From a virus (taxonomy: Duplodnaviria > Heunggongvirae > Uroviricota > Caudoviricetes): a stretch of DNA of 6,588 bases. Where the stretch lies: positions 1 to 6,588 of the IMG/VR virus record IMGVR_UViG_2548876940_000021, one strand, 5' to 3'. Below, piece by piece: positions 1 through 6,588 of this stretch (the first letter of the stretch is position 1; each line of letters starts with the position of its first letter). The position numbers and the translations under genes are program-made. The notes beneath the pieces were generated by a model. That model was not told the DNA's origin. It saw nothing but the letters and a program-made list of their open reading frames with translations, and did no database searches.

Positions 1-135
1 ATGATGCACTTTCAGCTCGCGGGTAGCGGCGTCATGTCCGCTTTCTACCCGCACGAATCTGAATTATCACGCCGAGTTAAACAATTAATCAGAGCAGCAA
101 AGAAACAACTGGAGGCGTTATGCGCAATGAAATAG
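1..135 (+). CDS. cIII-like small protein (FtsH/HflB protease inhibitor family), 44 aa; may extend upstream of the window
   Basis: Stop-free frame from position 1 (ATG ATG) to TAG at 133-135. The translation MMHFQLAGSGVMSAFYPHESELSRRVKQLIRAAKKQLEALCAMK resembles the lambda cIII core as I recall it (..AIAG.PVAG.PSESLLERITRKLRDGWKRLIDIL). Resemblance is from memory, not a search. Confidence 0.5.
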   Translation: MMHFQLAGSGVMSAFYPHESELSRRVKQLIRAAKKQLEALCAMK

Positions 136-272
136 CCATCAATCACCAGATGCTTCGAGCAGCACAAAACAAAGCAGTAATAGCCAGATTTATTGGTGAT
201 TCCAAAATGTGGCTTGAAGCAAATAAAGCGATGAAATCAGCTATCAACCTTCCGTGGTATCGCAGGAAATGA
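120..272 (+). CDS. Kil-like small protein (lambda Kil family, host cell-division inhibitor), 50 aa
   Basis: GGAGG at 111-115 followed by ATG at 120; overlaps the cIII-like ORF by 16 nt. The translation contains AVIARFIGDSKMWLEANKAMK, which resembles the lambda Kil motif I recall (ATFIGDEKMFREA..). Its position after cIII matches lambda gene order. Below the 60-aa cutoff of the ORF track. Confidence 0.45.
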   Translation: MRNEIAINHQMLRAAQNKAVIARFIGDSKMWLEANKAMKSAINLPWYRRK

Positions 273-376
273 GTTTTACAGATAACTGGTCAGACGAAGA
301 ATTCATTCGTCAGATGAAAGAAATGCTCAATCAGCATAAAGAACAGGAGAAAGATGATGATTCTGACTCTGAATGA
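269..376 (+). CDS. Small acidic hypothetical protein, 35 aa
   Basis: ATG at 269-271 overlaps the upstream TGA at 270-272 (ATGA coupling). Translation MSFTDNWSDEEFIRQMKEMLNQHKEQEKDDDSDSE has an acidic tail. Support is positional only. Confidence 0.3.
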   Translation: MSFTDNWSDEEFIRQMKEMLNQHKEQEKDDDSDSE

Positions 377-665
377 TAAGCGTGAAATATCGCAAATCAT
401 CGCAAGTTTTACCGATGAAGATTACGAGCGAATCAACAGTGAAGTTGATCGCCTCTGCAAACGTTGCGACCCAATAAGCGAAATGCTTCGCTCATATAAA
501 CCAGATGAACACACTAAGGACGCTATCGACTGGCTGGAAGATGATGACTGTAACTATCAGGAAAAAGCCGCTGAATGGTTCTGGGATGCAATAACCGAAA
601 GAGTTAAGGCTGAATATGCCTTCGCAATATTCAAACGCAGACATATTTATGGAGAAGCTGCATGA
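354..665 (+). CDS. Hypothetical phage early protein, 103 aa, at the position held by gam in lambda
   Basis: ORF with AGGAG at 345-349 and ATG at 354 or 357. Its stop TGA (663-665) overlaps the recT ATG (662-664). I see no recognisable similarity to lambda Gam. Confidence 0.6.
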   Translation: MMILTLNDKREISQIIASFTDEDYERINSEVDRLCKRCDPISEMLRSYKPDEHTKDAIDWLEDDDCNYQEKAAEWFWDAITERVKAEYAFAIFKRRHIYGEAA

Positions 666-1573
666 GCAATATCGTTGAATTCGTTAAACAGCAAGAGCAG
701 TTATTCTGCGGAGCATTGACTGAACAGACGGTGACATGGGCTAAGGAAAGCCAGTTTGCAATTCAGTATTTCCAGAAAAACGATTACCTGGCTAAAACGG
801 CACTGGCAAATCCAACCAGCGCACAGAACGCCATCATCAATGTTGCGGCGATCGGCATCACCTTAAACCCGGCCAGCAAACTGGCTTATCTGGTTCCGCG
901 CGACGGCATGGTGTGCCTTGATATCAGTTATATGGGATTGCTCCATATTGCAATGGAGTCTGGTGTTATCTCATGGGGTCAGGCAAAACTTGTTCATGCT
1001 AACGATACCTATGAGTCAAACGGGCTTGATAAAGCACCAACCCATAAATACAACGCCTTCGGTGATCGTGGTGATATCGTTGGCGTTTACTGCACAGTTA
1101 AGACGCCAGCAGGTGATTATCTAACGGAAGAGATGAGTCTGGCTGAAATTGAGGCTGTAAGGAAAACAAGCAAGGCGGCATTCAGCGATAAAGGACCATG
1201 GGTAAATCACTGGAATGAGATGGCGCGAAAGACGGTCGTAAAGCGTGCAAGCAAGTATTGGCCTAAGGCATCACGTCTTGATAGTGCTATTCACGTACTA
1301 AACGAAGAAGAAGGTGTGTGGACTGAACCAGTTATGCCGCACAAATCAGAGGAAGATATCCGCGAAGATGAACGGAAACGCCAGCAGGAAATAACGGATA
1401 AAGCACAACTTCTTTGTGATGAAATGGCTCATGCTGAAAACATGGATGATTTGAAGCGATATTTTGCAGAAGCATATCGCCTGACATCTGGAATGAAATT
1501 GCAGCAGAACGTACAAGCCATTTACGCAGAATGCAAAGCGAAACTGGAGGTTGCCAGTGAGCAAACTGTATGA
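662..1573 (+). CDS. recT: RecT-family single-strand annealing protein (Bet/RecT recombinase), 303 aa
   Basis: GGAG at 651-654 then ATG at 662. The segment GPWVNHWNEMARKTVVKRASKYWP matches the conserved RecT motif (Rac RecT GPWVTHWEEMAKKTAIRRLFKYLP, recalled). Size and operon position are appropriate. Confidence 0.9.
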   Translation: MSNIVEFVKQQEQLFCGALTEQTVTWAKESQFAIQYFQKNDYLAKTALANPTSAQNAIINVAAIGITLNPASKLAYLVPRDGMVCLDISYMGLLHIAMESGVISWGQAKLVHANDTYESNGLDKAPTHKYNAFGDRGDIVGVYCTVKTPAGDYLTEEMSLAEIEAVRKTSKAAFSDKGPWVNHWNEMARKTVVKRASKYWPKASRLDSAIHVLNEEEGVWTEPVMPHKSEEDIREDERKRQQEITDKAQLLCDEMAHAENMDDLKRYFAEAYRLTSGMKLQQNVQAIYAECKAKLEVASEQTV

Positions 1574-2039
1574 AATTGCCAATGAATACGCAAAATTGAT
1601 GGATTCAGATTTAGAACCAGAGATGATTGCTGACACAATAGAAGGCATGGAAGGAGAATTTACCGATAAAATAGAGCAACTTCTTTCCGTCATTAAAAAT
1701 GAATCTGGTTATGCCGAACGCCTCAAGGAAGAGGCAAAGTCACTGAATGAGCGAGCCGCAGTAATTCAAAATAAGATTGACAGCATTATGGCGTATATAG
1801 CGTCATCGCTTGAAATGGTTGGCAAGAAAAAGATTCGAGCAGGTATTCACCAGGTAACAATCCGCAAACCGTCAGAAACTGTAGAAATCATCGACTCAAG
1901 CGCCCTTCCTCCTGAATACGTTGAGTTTGAAACGACAATTAAAGCCGACAAACTGGCAATCAAACACCAACTAAAAGCAGGAATAAATATCCCCGGCGCT
2001 CAACTCAAAGTTGGGAAACCTTCACTTCTTATCAAATAA
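1557..2039 (+). CDS. Gp157-family phage protein (Sipho_Gp157-like), about 160 aa
   Basis: GGAGG at 1546-1550 then GTG at 1557 gives an N-terminus MSKLYEIANEYAKL, the characteristic MSKLYEL..Y start of Gp157-family proteins, followed by a coiled-coil-like region. It overlaps the recT 3' end. The ORF track's TTG at 1551 is in the same frame. Confidence 0.75.
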   Translation: MSKLYEIANEYAKLMDSDLEPEMIADTIEGMEGEFTDKIEQLLSVIKNESGYAERLKEEAKSLNERAAVIQNKIDSIMAYIASSLEMVGKKKIRAGIHQVTIRKPSETVEIIDSSALPPEYVEFETTIKADKLAIKHQLKAGINIPGAQLKVGKPSLLIK

Positions 2040-2050
2040 CGGTATCGACT

Positions 2051-2365
2051 ATGAAAAAGACTCCATGGGAGAAATGGGAAGTCGATTTCTTGCGCGAAGT
2101 ATCGGCGACAATGCCAGTTGAAGTTATCGCTGAAAAACTGGAAAGGACTGAAAAAGCAGTAATGGCGAAAGCAACAAGGATTGGTGCTGACATTGTTAGT
2201 CGACTTCGTGGAAGACGCTGGACAAGAGCCGAAGTATCACTTTTCGGTAAGTTCTCCGCAGAAGAAATAGCAATTGCAACCTGCCGCTCAATTTATTCAG
2301 TAAGGGCTATGCGATACAAGCTAAAAAAACTCGATGAAGAAAGAGCGGGCATACGAATAAATTAA
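2051..2365 (+). CDS. Small putative DNA-binding protein with two tandem HTH-like repeats (sigma-70 region 4 / Myb-like), 104 aa
   Basis: Two internal repeats of about 40 aa: [40 protein letters not shown] and [40 protein letters not shown]. Each carries an EIA..L..S/T...V-type recognition-helix pattern. Confidence 0.6.
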
Positions 2366-2381
2366 CAAAGAGGAATTTACC

Positions 2382-2549
2382 ATGAGAGGGCTTGCATACA
2401 ATCCCGGCATTCTTCCGGCAGAAATGATTATTCGCCAACGCGTAAAGCCAATGCCATCGAGAGAGGAATTGCTTAAGAGAAATTCTTTTCCGTCAGTAAA
2501 TCAAAACAAATATCTGAATGCGATGTGGCGCAAAGGAGGCAAGCAGTGA
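2382..2549 (+). CDS. Small hypothetical protein, 55 aa
   Basis: AGAGGA at 2369-2374 then ATG at 2382. Its stop TGA (2547-2549) overlaps the GTG start of the next gene (GTGA). Below the ORF-track cutoff. Confidence 0.45.
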
Positions 2550-2845
2550 GTGTATATCTTATTGATAAACGTCGACGTGGGCAACAAATACCACCTGTAG
2601 GAATTCCGAATCACACATGGTTTTGCGTACTTGATATCGATGGTATGGATGCGTTGGTTGACACTCGTCATTACTGCGATACCGCAACAGCTACTCCGGC
2701 GAAAGCAAAGAAAATGGCTGCTCTGATAGAAAACTGGACTCCACCTGATGGTTGGTGCAATGGGAATGATCGAGATTGGCATGAAAAAATGAAGGGCTAT
2801 ATCTGCGATTTCTTACGTAAATGCAACGGCTTCAGGGTGATGTGA
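2546..2845 (+). CDS. Hypothetical Cys/His-containing phage protein, 99 aa
   Basis: AGGAGG at 2534-2539 then GTG at 2546 six nt downstream. The ORF-track start at 2525 is the same frame, but 2546 has the better ribosome-binding site. Several Cys and His residues suggest possible metal binding. Confidence 0.6.
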
Positions 2846-2846
2846 C

Positions 2847-3485
2847 ATGAACAAGATTGACTATCAGGCACTGCGTGAAGCGGCAGAAAAAGCAACGTGT
2901 GGTGTGTGGTCGCTCGAATATGGAGAGGAGAGATTTGATGCTGGTGATGCGCTAATTCATCGTGACGTTGTTGGATATCTTCCCATTTGCAGAATTGAAG
3001 GAGCGCATCCAGAAAGCGGTTTCGATGAAGATTTCCAAATAGAACAGCAGGCCAATGCTGAATTCATCGCCGCAGCCAATCCGGCTACCGTCTTGGCGCT
3101 GCTTGGCGAGCTGGAAGCAGCAAAAAAGCGCATAGCAGAACTGGAAGCCGAACCTGTAAGCCAAACTTGCAAGTTGAACGAGCCATCGGGCAACTCTCCG
3201 GTAACTCCGGATGGTTGGATAAGCTGTAGTGAGCAGATGCCTGTAATCGGCGAGCTAAATTGGAGAACTAGTTTTCCTTTACTGGTTACGTGTGAGATCG
3301 GCGTTATACCTGCTTATTACGGCTTTGTGAGCGTTAATGGTGATAGGCATTATGGCTTTATGGAGAGTCTTAAATACGGAGACGATAACGGCAACCATCC
3401 TCAAACTAATGAATATGGTCTGATTAGCAATGTCACACACTGGATGCCTCTACCAGAACCGCCTCAGGAGGTTAACCGTGGCTAA
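2847..3485 (+). CDS. Ead/Ea22-like family protein with C-terminal DUF551-like domain, 212 aa
   Basis: N-terminus MNKIDYQALREAAEKAT..ANAEFIAAANPATVLALLGELEAAKKRIAELEA is typical of the Ead/Ea22-like N-region. The C-terminus ends ..VTHWMPLPEPPQ, the hallmark end of DUF551 proteins in enterobacterial prophages. Confidence 0.8.
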   Translation: MNKIDYQALREAAEKATCGVWSLEYGEERFDAGDALIHRDVVGYLPICRIEGAHPESGFDEDFQIEQQANAEFIAAANPATVLALLGELEAAKKRIAELEAEPVSQTCKLNEPSGNSPVTPDGWISCSEQMPVIGELNWRTSFPLLVTCEIGVIPAYYGFVSVNGDRHYGFMESLKYGDDNGNHPQTNEYGLISNVTHWMPLPEPPQEVNRG

Positions 3486-3759
3486 TCTGCAGCTTGCCGT
3501 TAAAGGTGAATACTTCGATGCCATGATTCGCGGTGAGAAAACGGAAGAGTATCGCTTGTGTAATGACTACTGGAATAAGCGAATTATGTTCCGGGAGTAT
3601 GACCGCCTGATTATCACAAAGGGATATCCGAAGCGCGACGACTTCAGTCGCAGAATTGATGTTCCGTATGACGGATATGAAATCAAGACAATCACACATC
3701 CCCACTTCGGCGATAAACCGGTAAAGGTGTTCGCGATAAAGGTGAATATCAATTGCTAA
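3478..3759 (+). CDS. ASCH/PUA-like domain protein, 93 aa
   Basis: AGGAGG at 3466-3471 then GTG at 3478, overlapping the upstream stop. The N-terminal motif LAVKGEYFDAMIRGEKTEEYR fits the ASCH GxKxxExR signature. The ORF-track start at 3430 would overlap the previous gene by 56 nt and is less likely. Confidence 0.65.
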   Translation: MANLQLAVKGEYFDAMIRGEKTEEYRLCNDYWNKRIMFREYDRLIITKGYPKRDDFSRRIDVPYDGYEIKTITHPHFGDKPVKVFAIKVNINC

Positions 3760-3783
3760 ATTAGTAGCATAGCATAAAGATGC

Positions 3784-3807
3784 TTGCATTAATGAAGTGT
3801 GTATAAT
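3784..3807 (+). promoter_or_regulatory. Candidate sigma-70 promoter for the AT-rich cassette (consensus -10 TATAAT at 3802-3807; weak -35)
   Basis: A perfect TATAAT sits about 65 nt upstream of the 63-aa ORF in AT-rich DNA. TTGCAT at 3784-3789 is only 12 nt upstream, which is suboptimal spacing, and hexamers at 16-18 nt spacing are poor. Confidence 0.3.
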
Positions 3808-3871
3808 AACGCCTCATCAATAGTAAACTACTGAAATAGCAAAAAAATGCATATTAAAGAGGATTCGAAAA

Positions 3872-4063
3872 TTGAAAATGTTCATGCAAATAGACAGACG
3901 CATAGATATTAATGGCAATTCATACTTAGTTAGATGCGAAGAGAGGCCTAACGGTGAGTGGCGTGTATATGATATTGACCGTAAGATCAATATCAGCACC
4001 ATGAACAAAGACACTGCCTTTGATGAATGGAAAGCTGAAGCTAAAAAACAACATAATTCGTAG
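3872..4063 (+). CDS. Hypothetical small protein in an AT-rich moron-like insertion, 63 aa
   Basis: ORF with AAAGAGGA at 3856-3863. Start is TTG at 3872, or ATG at 3878 or 3884 in the same frame. Translation MKMFMQIDRRIDINGNSYLVRCEERPNGEWRVYDIDRKINISTMNKDTAFDEWKAEAKKQHNS. The surrounding DNA is clearly more AT-rich than neighbouring genes, and a terminator follows. Confidence 0.5.
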   Translation: MKMFMQIDRRIDINGNSYLVRCEERPNGEWRVYDIDRKINISTMNKDTAFDEWKAEAKKQHNS

Positions 4064-4106
4064 AATTACAAAAACCCTAACCAATTGATGGTTTTCTTTT
4101 ATCTGA

Positions 4107-4130
4107 ACTCGCTACGGCGAGTTTTGTTTT
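4107..4130 (+). terminator. Rho-independent terminator-like hairpin plus T-tract
   Basis: Stem ACTCGC (4107-4112), loop TACG, stem GCGAGT (4117-4122), then TTTGTTTT (4123-4130). It lies 44 nt after the 63-aa ORF stop and directly before the ribosome-binding site of the 114-aa gene. Confidence 0.55.
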
Positions 4131-4143
4131 ATGGAGACAAGAA

Positions 4144-4488
4144 ATGTCAGATTTGGCTATGAAGGTTTTGAAATGGCAATCGACTGGCGATGTAGGCATC
4201 AGTAGCGCAACTCTTGCCTCAATCGCATGTGGACTGAAAAAGAATATCTATGGTCATAGCTTCGGTGCTCCACATGACGCAGCCGATTTCCGACGATGCG
4301 TTGCACTTGTTGAGCAGATTCCAGAAATCAGAGATTCATTCGACAAGGTTGCAAAGCGCGTTCCGGCATTCAAAGGCATCCTCAACGAATGGGATTCACT
4401 CGTTGCTCTGTTGAAGTCTGAAATGAAGACGTATGGGAACAAAGCACCAGAGACTTACAGAAGAATCAGCGAGCTACGCAAGGACTAA
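4144..4488 (+). CDS. Hypothetical phage protein, 114 aa
   Basis: GGAG at 4133-4136 then ATG at 4144. Clean ORF with ordinary composition and no family I can recognise. Terminator-like hairpins lie on both sides. Confidence 0.65.
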   Translation: MSDLAMKVLKWQSTGDVGISSATLASIACGLKKNIYGHSFGAPHDAADFRRCVALVEQIPEIRDSFDKVAKRVPAFKGILNEWDSLVALLKSEMKTYGNKAPETYRRISELRKD

Positions 4489-4545
4489 CCCACCTCACAC
4501 TCGATGAGGCCTGTTCATTGCTCAATGATATCCAGACCTACCATC

Positions 4546-4569
4546 GCCGCATCAATGCGGCTTTTTCTT
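4546..4569 (+). terminator. Rho-independent terminator-like hairpin plus T-tract
   Basis: GCCGC (4546-4550), loop ATCAAT, GCGGC (4557-4561), then TTTTTCTT (4562-4569). It lies 58 nt after the 114-aa ORF stop. Confidence 0.55.
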
Positions 4570-4611
4570 GCCTGATTTGCAGGTTCGATTCCCTATTCGG
4601 AGATAGCACTC

Positions 4612-4812
4612 ATGCAACACGAACTACAACCTGATTCACTGGTTGATTTGAAATTCATCATGGCCGATACTGGCTTCGGTAAAACCTTCATCTATGACCG
4701 GATTAAGTCCGGCGACCTGCCAAAAGCCAAAGTTATCCACGGGCGAGCAAGATGGTTATATCGTGACCATTGTGAATTCAAAAATAAGCTCTTAAGCCGC
4801 GCCAATGGGTAA
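4612..4812 (+). CDS. AlpA-family / excisionase-like HTH regulatory protein (Xis candidate), 66 aa
   Basis: GGAG at 4599-4602 then ATG at 4612. The translation LVDLKFIMADTGFGKTFIYDRIKSGDLPKAKVIHGRARWLYRDHCEFKNKLL follows the AlpA/Xis HTH pattern (..tG.s..tiY.li..G.fP.p.k.g.r..W...ev..w). It is the last gene of the + strand operon. Confidence 0.75.
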   Translation: MQHELQPDSLVDLKFIMADTGFGKTFIYDRIKSGDLPKAKVIHGRARWLYRDHCEFKNKLLSRANG

Positions 4813-4828
4813 AATAGCGGGTAAAATA
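4807..4828 (+). repeat. Tandem direct repeat GGGTAAAATA x2 (period 12) spanning the AlpA-like stop codon
   Basis: Read directly: GGGTAAAATA at 4807-4816 and again at 4819-4828, separated by GC. This is where recombinase arm-type or regulator binding sites might be expected. Confidence 0.6.
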
Positions 4829-4861
4829 TTTCTCACATCTAAAAAACTCCATTCCAATCAA

Positions 4862-4895
4862 TCCCCTGCCGCTTCAAGTAGATGTCTGCAGGGGA
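4862..4895. repeat. Perfect 8-bp inverted repeat TCCCCTGC / GCAGGGGA with an 18-nt spacer
   Basis: Read directly: 4862-4869 and 4888-4895 are reverse complements. No T-tract follows, so it looks more like a protein-binding or recombination site than a terminator. Confidence 0.55.
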
Positions 4896-5288
4896 CACCA
4901 GATACCCTTCAAACGAAATCTACCTTCACCCCGTAAAAGATAGGTTTGGCAGCACACTTGCCTTATATCTACTCATTTTTACTGCAACAGGTTGAAATCT
5001 CAGCACTGTCAGAAAGCGCTGATGACTAAACAGCCCTGGGCCGGGCGATGTAACCATCACACAGAATCCTGATAGCGAAATATGGCGTGACTCGATACTT
5101 CACTCCGCAATGCATTCCTTGATGAATTCGCAGGACCGTGATACACGGGACAGGTCGCTGAATGACGACAATGTCCTGGAAATCAGCGAACCGCGCATCT
5201 GAAGTACATTTGAGCGACTGTACCAGAACATGAATGAGGCGTTTGGATTAGGTGATTATTAGCAGGGCTAAGCACTTTAGTATTATTA

Positions 5289-5332
5289 TTTTCCGGTTGA
5301 GGGATAGGGAGATATCGACAACAACCGGAAAA
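5289..5332. repeat. Perfect 11-bp inverted repeat TTTTCCGGTTG / CAACCGGAAAA with a 22-nt spacer, 9 nt beyond the MFS gene stop; possible terminator or junction element
   Basis: Read directly: 5289-5299 and 5322-5332 are reverse complements. It sits between convergent transcription units, and neither strand has a clean U-tract after it. Confidence 0.45.
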
Positions 5333-5340
5333 GTTTACGT

Positions 5341-6588
5341 CTATATTGCTGAAGGTACAGGCGTTTCCATAACTATTTGCTCGCGTTTTTTACTCAGGAA
5401 GAAAATGCCAAATAGCAACATCAGGCAGACAATACCCGAAATTGCGAAGAAAACTGTCTGGTAGCCTGCGTGGTCAAAGAGTATCCCAGTCGGCGTTGAA
5501 AGCAGCACAATCCCAAGCGAACTGGCAATTTGAAAACCAATCAGAAAGATCGTCGACGACAGGCGCTTATCAAAATTTGCCACGCTGTATTTGAAGACGG
5601 ATATGACACAAAGTGGAACCTCAATAGCATGTAACAGCTTCACTAATGAAATAATCCAGGGGTTAACGAACAGCGCGCAGGAAAGGATACGCAACGCCAT
5701 AATCACAACACCGATAAGTAATGCATTTTTTGGCCCTACCCGATTCACAAAGAAAGGAATAATCGCCATGCATAGCGCTTCGAGTACCACCTGGAATGAG
5801 TTGAGATAACCATACAGGCGCGTTCCTACATCGTGTGATTCGAATAAACCTGCATAAAAGACAGGAAAAAGTTGTTGATCAAAAATGTTATAGAAAGACC
5901 ACGTCCCCACAATAAATATGACGAAAACCCAGAAGTTTCGATCCTTGAAAACTGCGATAAAATCCTCTTTTTTTACCCCTCCCGCATCCGCCGCTACGCA
6001 CTGGTGATCCTTATCTTTAAAACACATGTTGATCATCATAAATACAGCGCCAAATAGCGAGACCAACCAGAAGTTGATATGGGGACTGATACTAAAAAAT
6101 ATGCCGGCAAAGAACGCGCCAATAGCATAGCCAAAAGATCCCCAGGCGCGCGCTGTTCCATATTCGAAATGAAAATTTCGCGCCATTTTTTCGGTGAAGC
6201 TGTCAAGCAAACCGCATCCCGCCAGATACCCCAGGCCAAAAAAGAGCGCCCCCAGAATTAGACCTACAGAAAAATTGCTTTGCAGTAACGGTTCATAAAC
6301 GTAAATCATAAACGGTCCGGTCAAGACCAGGATGAAACTCATACACCAGATGAGCGGTTTCTTCAGACCGAGTTTATCCTGAACGATGCCGTAGAACATC
6401 ATAAATAGAATGCTGGTAAACTGGTTGACCGAATAAAGTGTACCTAATTCCGTCCCTGTCAACCCTAGATGTCCTTTCAGCCAAATAGCGTATAACGACC
6501 ACCACAGCGACCAGGAAATAAAAAAGAGAAATGAGTAACTGGATGCAAAACGATAGTACGCATTTCTGAATGGAATATTCAGTGCCAT
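5341..6588 (-). CDS. MFS transporter, LacY-like oligosaccharide:H+ symporter family, 415 aa
   Basis: Long minus-strand ORF whose ATG is the last three bases of the window. The translation is hydrophobic throughout with about 12 predicted membrane spans. Motifs match LacY as recalled: GIVQDKLGLKKPLIW against LacY GLLSDKLGLRKYLLW, and FNIFDQQ...GTRLYGY...NRVGPKNALL against LacY YDVFDQQ...GTRVFGY...NRIGGKNALL. Confidence 0.85.
   Translation of the reverse strand: MALNIPFRNAYYRFASSYSFLFFISWSLWWSLYAIWLKGHLGLTGTELGTLYSVNQFTSILFMMFYGIVQDKLGLKKPLIWCMSFILVLTGPFMIYVYEPLLQSNFSVGLILGALFFGLGYLAGCGLLDSFTEKMARNFHFEYGTARAWGSFGYAIGAFFAGIFFSISPHINFWLVSLFGAVFMMINMCFKDKDHQCVAADAGGVKKEDFIAVFKDRNFWVFVIFIVGTWSFYNIFDQQLFPVFYAGLFESHDVGTRLYGYLNSFQVVLEALCMAIIPFFVNRVGPKNALLIGVVIMALRILSCALFVNPWIISLVKLLHAIEVPLCVISVFKYSVANFDKRLSSTIFLIGFQIASSLGIVLLSTPTGILFDHAGYQTVFFAISGIVCLMLLFGIFFLSKKREQIVMETPVPSAI

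Follow-up and report, generated by a model that had tools for sequence, protein, structure and literature searches.

An AT-rich segment in the early-left operon of a lambdoid Escherichia coli prophage carries a small accessory gene of the phrog_16329 family

Closest described systems

By the definition of Hendrix and colleagues, morons are extra DNA of distinct GC content that brings its own promoter and its own terminator and is expressed from the repressed prophage (reviewed in PMC3594210). The exo–xis proteins of lambda and Stx phages (orf60a, orf61, orf63, ea8.5, and ea22) are encoded between the recombination genes and xis. Genes located there affect lysogenisation and induction, and their products have been proposed to act as protein-binding modulators (PMC3824215, PMC8614690).

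The DNA analysed here, herein called the window, is a stretch of 6,588 nucleotides (IMG/VR record IMGVR_UViG_2548876940_000021, positions 1 to 6,588). It contains a 63-codon ORF, herein called orf63, which lies on an AT-rich segment in the same region as the exo–xis genes. Like the exo–xis proteins, the product of orf63 is small, early, and not essential, and an Ea22-family gene is found just upstream. The lambda exo–xis products differ from it by showing no sequence similarity in a tblastn search of a phage collection including Lambdavirus records (E up to 10), and the equal length of lambda orf63, also 63 residues, is a coincidence. The segment resembles a moron in being extra DNA that separates features lying side by side in relatives and in having a GC content unlike its surroundings. 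It differs from a moron in that the terminator belongs to the recipient phage, the candidate promoter is not conserved, and the distant homologs are ordinary operon members.

A described homolog is HK639_31 of phage HK639 (YP_004934061.1), with 65–67% identity over the full length. Its position is alike: it closes the early-left operon behind the RecT and Gam-like genes and is directly followed by an annotated terminator, then by one small gene and int. HK639 differs by its unrelated DNA flanks, its own strong terminator, and its ATG start. In the literature on HK639, nothing was found about an orf63-type gene. For the right-hand part of the locus, the counterpart is phage 434 (M60848), to whose tL4/ORF114/t'I sequence the window is homologous from position 4090 on. 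The difference is that the annotated tL4 hairpin of phage 434 is the one that is replaced in the window.

Prophage setting

From left to right, the window covers the early-left (pL-type) operon of an E. coli prophage of the lambdoid/P22-like kind. Its features are collected in Table 1. The upstream genes had been described as tightly coupled, and they are indeed closely packed, with overlaps or gaps of 1–16 nt.

Table 1 Coordinates of the features in the window, counted from its first letter
Feature	Position	Strand	Remarks
RecT	662–1573		early-left operon
Gp157/Gam-like	1557–2039		
Small HTH protein	2051–2365		
DUF2737	2382–2549		
DUF7739	2546–2845		
Ead/Ea22 + DUF551 protein	2847–3485		
ASCH-domain gene	3478–3759	+	RefSeq name for the equivalent gene; phrog_625, E 1.9e-50
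AT-rich segment, 339 bp	3751–4089		junctions from alignment of filled and empty sites
Noncoding leader	3760–3871	+	112 nt, 29.5% GC
TATAAT hexamer	3802–3807	+	read from sequence; candidate only, possible weak −10 element
Shine-Dalgarno AAAGAGGA	3856–3863	+	8–9 nt upstream of the TTG start
orf63	3872–4063	+	TTG start (3872), TAG end (4063), 63 aa, 7.6 kDa, pI 7.9
Weak AT-rich hairpin AACCA/TGGTT	4079–4093	+	3′ edge of the segment, at the position of the lost first hairpin
Resident hairpin + T-tract	4105–4133 (hairpin 4105–4124)	+	second of two tandem tL4-region hairpins
Homolog of phage 434 ORF114	4144–4488	+	right-hand neighbor of the slot; M60848 annotation; phrog_1229, E 4.8e-51
Hairpin equivalent to t'I of phage 434	4546–4561		
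TorI-like excisionase	4612–4812		
cscB (chromosomal sucrose permease gene)		−	next after the attachment core

The attachment core of KplE1 is CTGCAGGGGACACCAT (PMC2951348), and 15 of its 16 bases are matched by the KplE1/CPS-53-type core at window positions 4886–4901 (CTGCAGGGGACACCAG), just 3′ of the TorI-like excisionase. This match and the TorI-like excisionase together indicate a recombination module of the KplE1/HK620 type and hence the argW-region site beside the csc sucrose genes. In such modules, the integrase occupies the opposite end of the prophage (PMC2951348), which is why no int follows xis in the window. Between the attachment core and cscB, ∼440 bp (4902–5340) hold no convincing gene; a DUF4942 pseudogene fragment is annotated at this position in related genomes. 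The ORF114 homolog and the ORF55 gene (positions 3406–3573 of locus L003) are widespread lambdoid genes between tL4 and xis. ORF55 is absent from the window and found in many relatives, and its presence varies among otherwise similar prophages.

Architecture and distribution of the inserted segment

Downstream of the ASCH gene, most related prophages have ∼72 bp with two tandem hairpins, then ORF55 and/or ORF114, and finally xis. When filled and empty sites are aligned, they diverge directly after GTGAATATC (ending at window position 3750), within the last ASCH codons, and rejoin at GGATTTCTTTTATCT (window 4090), which places the junctions at 3750/3751 and 4089/4090. The extra DNA therefore extends from 3751 to 4089, and the bounds of 3760–4143 given in the preliminary description have to be corrected. 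Compared with the empty site, 339 bp have taken the place of ∼30 bp, which comprised the ASCH 3′ end plus the first resident hairpin's stem. The final three ASCH codons including the stop (3751–3759, AAT TGC TAA) come from the inserted segment, by which the ASCH C terminus is changed from VNIGNE-stop in empty-site alleles to VNINC-stop in the window. No direct repeats or target duplication were seen at the junctions in this alignment.

The segment has a GC content of 33.6% compared with 44.7% for the upstream phage DNA (1–3750). It is the lowest-GC 339-bp stretch of the whole sequence, and the lowest stretch not overlapping it has 38.9%. The abrupt shift to AT-rich DNA that had been noticed at this place is thus borne out by windowed computation.

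A count over 5426 complete E. coli genomes gave 816 with the contiguous empty junction; the filled site is represented by 27 intact copies and one copy split by ISEc8. The segment is hence carried by ∼0.5% of these genomes, and it is also present in one Stx2a-converting phage. As had been anticipated, the site varies across related prophages rather than holding invariant core DNA (816 empty versus 27 filled), and its assignment to the variable exo–xis part of the early-left operon is agreed with. The carrier prophages adjoin torS, sbcB, ybhC, dsdC, and cscB, and their recombination modules differ. In E. coli-type viral contigs, leader and ORF are 96–100% identical, which exceeds the 88–99% of the adjacent ASCH gene; since the travelling part is better conserved than its neighbor, these comparisons fit a recent horizontal spread by recombination.

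Several copies are disrupted or displaced. In E. coli OkiPb01684, ISEc8 (IS66-family) is found within the leader (L006 558–3001; approximately window 3859). In Salmonella Typhimurium draft contigs (L008–L010), the ORF is cut at CTAA (contig position 72/73, corresponding to window 3947) by the end of a multicopy element; the element is present in 4668 plasmid records, and its end probably resembles an IS5-family terminus. A prophage of E. coli MEI1A-0323 at the same cscB site (L005 2412–3155) has kept only the 3′ 155 bp (window 3992–4146); this remnant is fused behind an unrelated DUF551-type gene and marks a recombination breakpoint inside orf63. A lineage with 95% identity appears to stem from Salmonella. 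In one of its loci (L044 4193–8189), the ASCH gene and orf63 are followed by DinI-like, NinB-like (DUF1367), Rz-like, and small terminase genes and not by tL4, ORF114, and xis, a gene order that suggests a rearranged or deleted prophage.

Evidence for a protein-coding gene

The length of orf63 alone is not beyond chance, as 27% of segment shuffles contain 64 or more consecutive codons without a stop. The near-identical copies contain too little variation for a selection analysis, the close alleles differing by three synonymous and three conservative changes (I13V, I39V, and N27D). The HK639 copy was used instead. Over 60 aligned codons, window and HK639 show 12, 12, and 33 differences at codon positions 1, 2, and 3, respectively, which corresponds to a pS of 0.80 (saturated), a pN of 0.21, and a pN/pS of 0.26. 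Similarity at the DNA level is limited to window positions 3873–4041. The ATG of HK639 aligns with the TTG of the window, and a Shine-Dalgarno sequence stands before both. Judged by this substitution pattern, orf63 is a real protein-coding gene under purifying selection.

All six frames were scored because the wobble positions of the sense frame coincide with those of one antisense frame. The sense frame is the best one, with 40 identical residues, a BLOSUM62 sum of 223, and the pN/pS given above, compared with 32, 135, and 0.50 for the best antisense frame. This bears on a possible minus-strand product, namely a small hydrophobic peptide, for example, a type I toxin, encoded at 3926–4084 (52 aa) or 3817–4014 (65 aa). 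Both frames are open in the window, and the 65-aa frame, which is the one sharing the sense wobble position, is open in HK639 too, but it is the less conserved frame of the comparison above, whereas the 52-aa frame runs into stops in the pairwise comparison of window and HK639. Neither has a PHROG match, and Shine-Dalgarno and aligned start codons favor the plus strand in all lineages. Because of the weaker conservation or the stops, both minus-strand ORFs were rejected, and a product from this strand is regarded as very improbable.

RefSeq (PGAP) leaves the ORF unannotated in all 28 E. coli carrier genomes, which is probably a systematic miss due to the short length and the TTG start. The same features (no RefSeq annotation, a TTG codon, an unremarkable length), together with breakpoints and IS insertions that fall inside the frame, could be read as signs of a spurious ORF, in which case the AT-rich segment would be noncoding, for example, a scar of regulatory or recombination type, or would encode an RNA. 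Such a reading is at odds with the protein-like substitutions relative to HK639 and the confinement of similarity to the ORF, with distant members of the family that keep length and conserved residues, and with the confident AlphaFold2 fold (see below). Rfam returned no known RNA family anywhere in the window (E up to 1). The spurious-ORF reading is already largely refuted and is given only a marginal chance.

Protein family, homologs, and fold

In agreement with the preliminary description, the 63-aa ORF has no recognizable family in the common resources: Pfam, NCBIfam, PADLOC, and PDB sequence searches, performed with single sequences and with the family alignment, gave no match. The protein does match phrog_16329 with an E value of 8.5e-49, its residues 1–63 covering profile positions 1–63 of 63; this 63-residue PHROG family is labelled as of unknown function. 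The family is tiny, comprising 13 clusters among 5.8 billion proteins. A six-frame search of 50,697 phage records (E up to 10) yielded only HK639 and one Stx2a phage (Stx2_16002), and an exhaustive HMMER search of 1.84 billion representatives added only two small remote true homologs (P0008 and P0009). Three long proteins from the latter search (P0010–P0012) match only via a repeated hairpin-like motif and were treated as nonhomologous; the only match from the genome-contig scan, 13 residues long and located in a Hyphomicrobiales MAG (L017), was judged spurious.

The members at 36–51% identity (P0008, P0015, and P0009) have the same length and share 17 invariant residues. The homologs are AT-richer than their own loci in every lineage, and all their contexts are early regions of enterobacterial-type phages. 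As far as these sequence collections reach, phrog_16329 is a very small family specific to enterobacterial phages. The GenBank entry of HK639_31 (88 aa, L016 3423–3689) begins 26 codons upstream of the conserved start; family alignment and Shine-Dalgarno support a product of 62 aa from locus position 3501.

The neighbors of the homologs are the ASCH gene and ORF114 in the window and theta-like, uncharacterized, or DinI-like genes elsewhere. In two loci (L050 4759–5183 and L052 3825–4249), the homolog is coupled by a 4-bp overlap to a gene for a Pol III theta/HolE-like protein. This is the only recurring neighbor and possibly a functional hint.

AlphaFold2 models with pLDDT values of 85.9 and 89.5 confidently predict a four-stranded antiparallel sheet that is packed on a C-terminal helix. 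No significant structural match was obtained for the orf63 model. The weak neighbors include the TriX immunity protein, MmoD, and the N-terminal domain of HicB, which are likewise small binding modules built of a β-sheet plus a helix. However, their identity to orf63 is only 8–12%, orf63 has neither family signatures nor a partner gene, and the scores are those expected for a common small fold. Alternatively, orf63 might be a stand-alone HicB-like antitoxin or an immunity-type protein neutralizing a toxin encoded elsewhere. For HicB/UPF0150-type antitoxins, no sequence-profile match was found, and no HicA toxin gene adjoins orf63 or its homologs among the neighbors examined; an antitoxin or immunity function of this kind is considered improbable. 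Nor did the analysis produce evidence for the defense, anti-defense, or toxin role for which the gene had been proposed as a candidate, the PADLOC-DB v2 defense-system profiles giving no match at E up to 1.

Leader and candidate promoter

The noncoding gap of about 110 bp that had been reported before the ORF is present, its 112 nt lying between the ASCH stop and the TTG. It accompanies the ORF in all 29 E. coli/Salmonella-type loci, and its predicted fold is unremarkable (z −1.37). A Shine-Dalgarno sequence precedes the aligned start codon in every divergent homolog. An upstream ORF of 21 codons at 3847 was rejected, as no Shine-Dalgarno precedes it and the 95% lineage lacks its ATG. Two homopolymer runs vary or are associated with variants: the A run at 3841–3847 in the leader ranges from A6 to A8 among copies, and the A run at 4043–4048, close to where the ORF ends, explains the frameshifts at the C terminus of the database variants P0003 and P0004, which are either genuine or due to sequencing errors.

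Of the promoter-like element that had been ascribed to the leader, the TATAAT hexamer itself stands. It reads as a perfect −10 hexamer, but there is no −35 at a distance of 16–19 bp and no TGn extension, and the promoter scanner called no sigma-70 site in the leader. The hexamer arises in 15% of shuffled leaders (p ∼0.15) and is replaced by AATAAT in three loci of the 95% lineage (L037, L042, and L045). Further away in the family, the HK639 leader contains a promoter-like site scoring 9/12, and none was found in the leader of L051. In P0008 and P0015, the start overlaps the stop of the upstream Pol III theta/HolE-like gene by 4 bp, which leaves no room for a leader and makes these homologs plain operon members.

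Hairpins and terminator

A hairpin with a T-tract follows orf63, as first described, but it is no cargo of the cassette. The hairpin at 4105–4124 (−11.9 kcal/mol, z −4.15), which likely terminates orf63 transcripts, is identical or near-identical in phage 434 and in empty-site prophages, that is, in phages and prophages that lack the segment. Since the working hairpin is resident, the segment has no terminator of its own in the window. At its 3′ edge, only the weak hairpin is found, with −3.1 kcal/mol and with 52 of 200 shuffles folding equally well or better; the empty site folds into two strong hairpins with −26.8 kcal/mol in all.

In lambdoid prophages, the tL4 region consists of two hairpin terminators in tandem (window 4090–4133 versus L011 1780–1850 and L001 295–325). 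Of these, the window keeps only the second; the first, which has been replaced by the segment, is the only one to which the phage 434 record gives the label t-L4. Nothing was found about this terminator in the literature on tL4.

A canonical terminator is located 15–40 nt 3′ of the homolog in HK639, L050, L051, and L052 as well, with differing sequences. By its placement in these loci, the orf63-family gene regularly closes its transcription unit.

These observations decide how far the segment can be called a classic horizontally acquired moron. The designation holds for the extra DNA, the distinct GC content, and the real gene; it fails for the terminator, which is resident. Of a promoter, only a candidate −10 hexamer is present. 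As an autonomous moron, the segment would express orf63 from TATAAT in the repressed prophage and confer a benefit on the lysogen, such as superinfection exclusion, defense, or another conversion trait. Extra DNA relative to most relatives, its deviating composition, a perfect −10 in an AT-rich leader that travels with the ORF, the promoter-like site of HK639, and a terminator downstream are in line with this and fit the published moron definition (PMC3594210), but the incomplete and poorly conserved promoter, the homologs without promoter-like site or without leader, the resident origin of the terminator, and the lacking PADLOC match speak against it. Autonomous expression of this kind is a possible but unlikely explanation.

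Proposed origin and mode of action

The best overall explanation, whose chances we put at about even, combines acquisition of the segment by non-homologous recombination, orf63 as a terminal pL cistron, and a product that modulates another protein by binding. The segment would have entered at the end of the exo–xis part of the early-left operon by non-homologous recombination and thereby replaced the last ASCH codons together with the first hairpin stem of the resident tandem pair. During infection or induction, most orf63 mRNA would come from the antiterminated pL transcript, of which the gene would be the last cistron, and the TATAAT at 3802 would add a weak share at most. Translation would start from the TTG behind a good Shine-Dalgarno, and transcripts without antitermination would end at the resident hairpin. 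The near-neutral, presumably soluble protein of 7.6 kDa would then bind and modulate another protein of host or phage.

A small protein-binding early factor is the best guess for orf63 because of its small size, its solubility, the lack of enzymatic or nucleic-acid-binding signatures, and the weak fold neighbors being binding or inhibitory modules. An enzyme, a membrane protein, or a DNA mimic is unlikely. A more specific and rather doubtful proposal is that orf63 is the founder of a family of small effectors by which phages bind and inhibit a protein of the host, either a component of replication, recombination, or repair or an anti-phage defense. It draws on the coupling to the theta/HolE-like gene in two lineages, on the setting among RecT, Gam-like, anti-RecBCD, and DinI-like functions, and on the compact spread between unrelated prophages.

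Significance

Missing from RefSeq, orf63 is invisible to annotation-based screens. It represents a clean case of a selected 7.6-kDa protein with a confidently predicted fold and without characterized relatives. The anatomy of the locus is corrected in two respects: the terminator belongs to the phage itself, and the tL4 region has lost its first hairpin through the insertion, which might slightly alter read-through toward ORF114 and xis. Altogether, orf63 is a real, rare, and horizontally spread accessory gene in a known variable region; it is of the ordinary phage accessory kind and not a new system.
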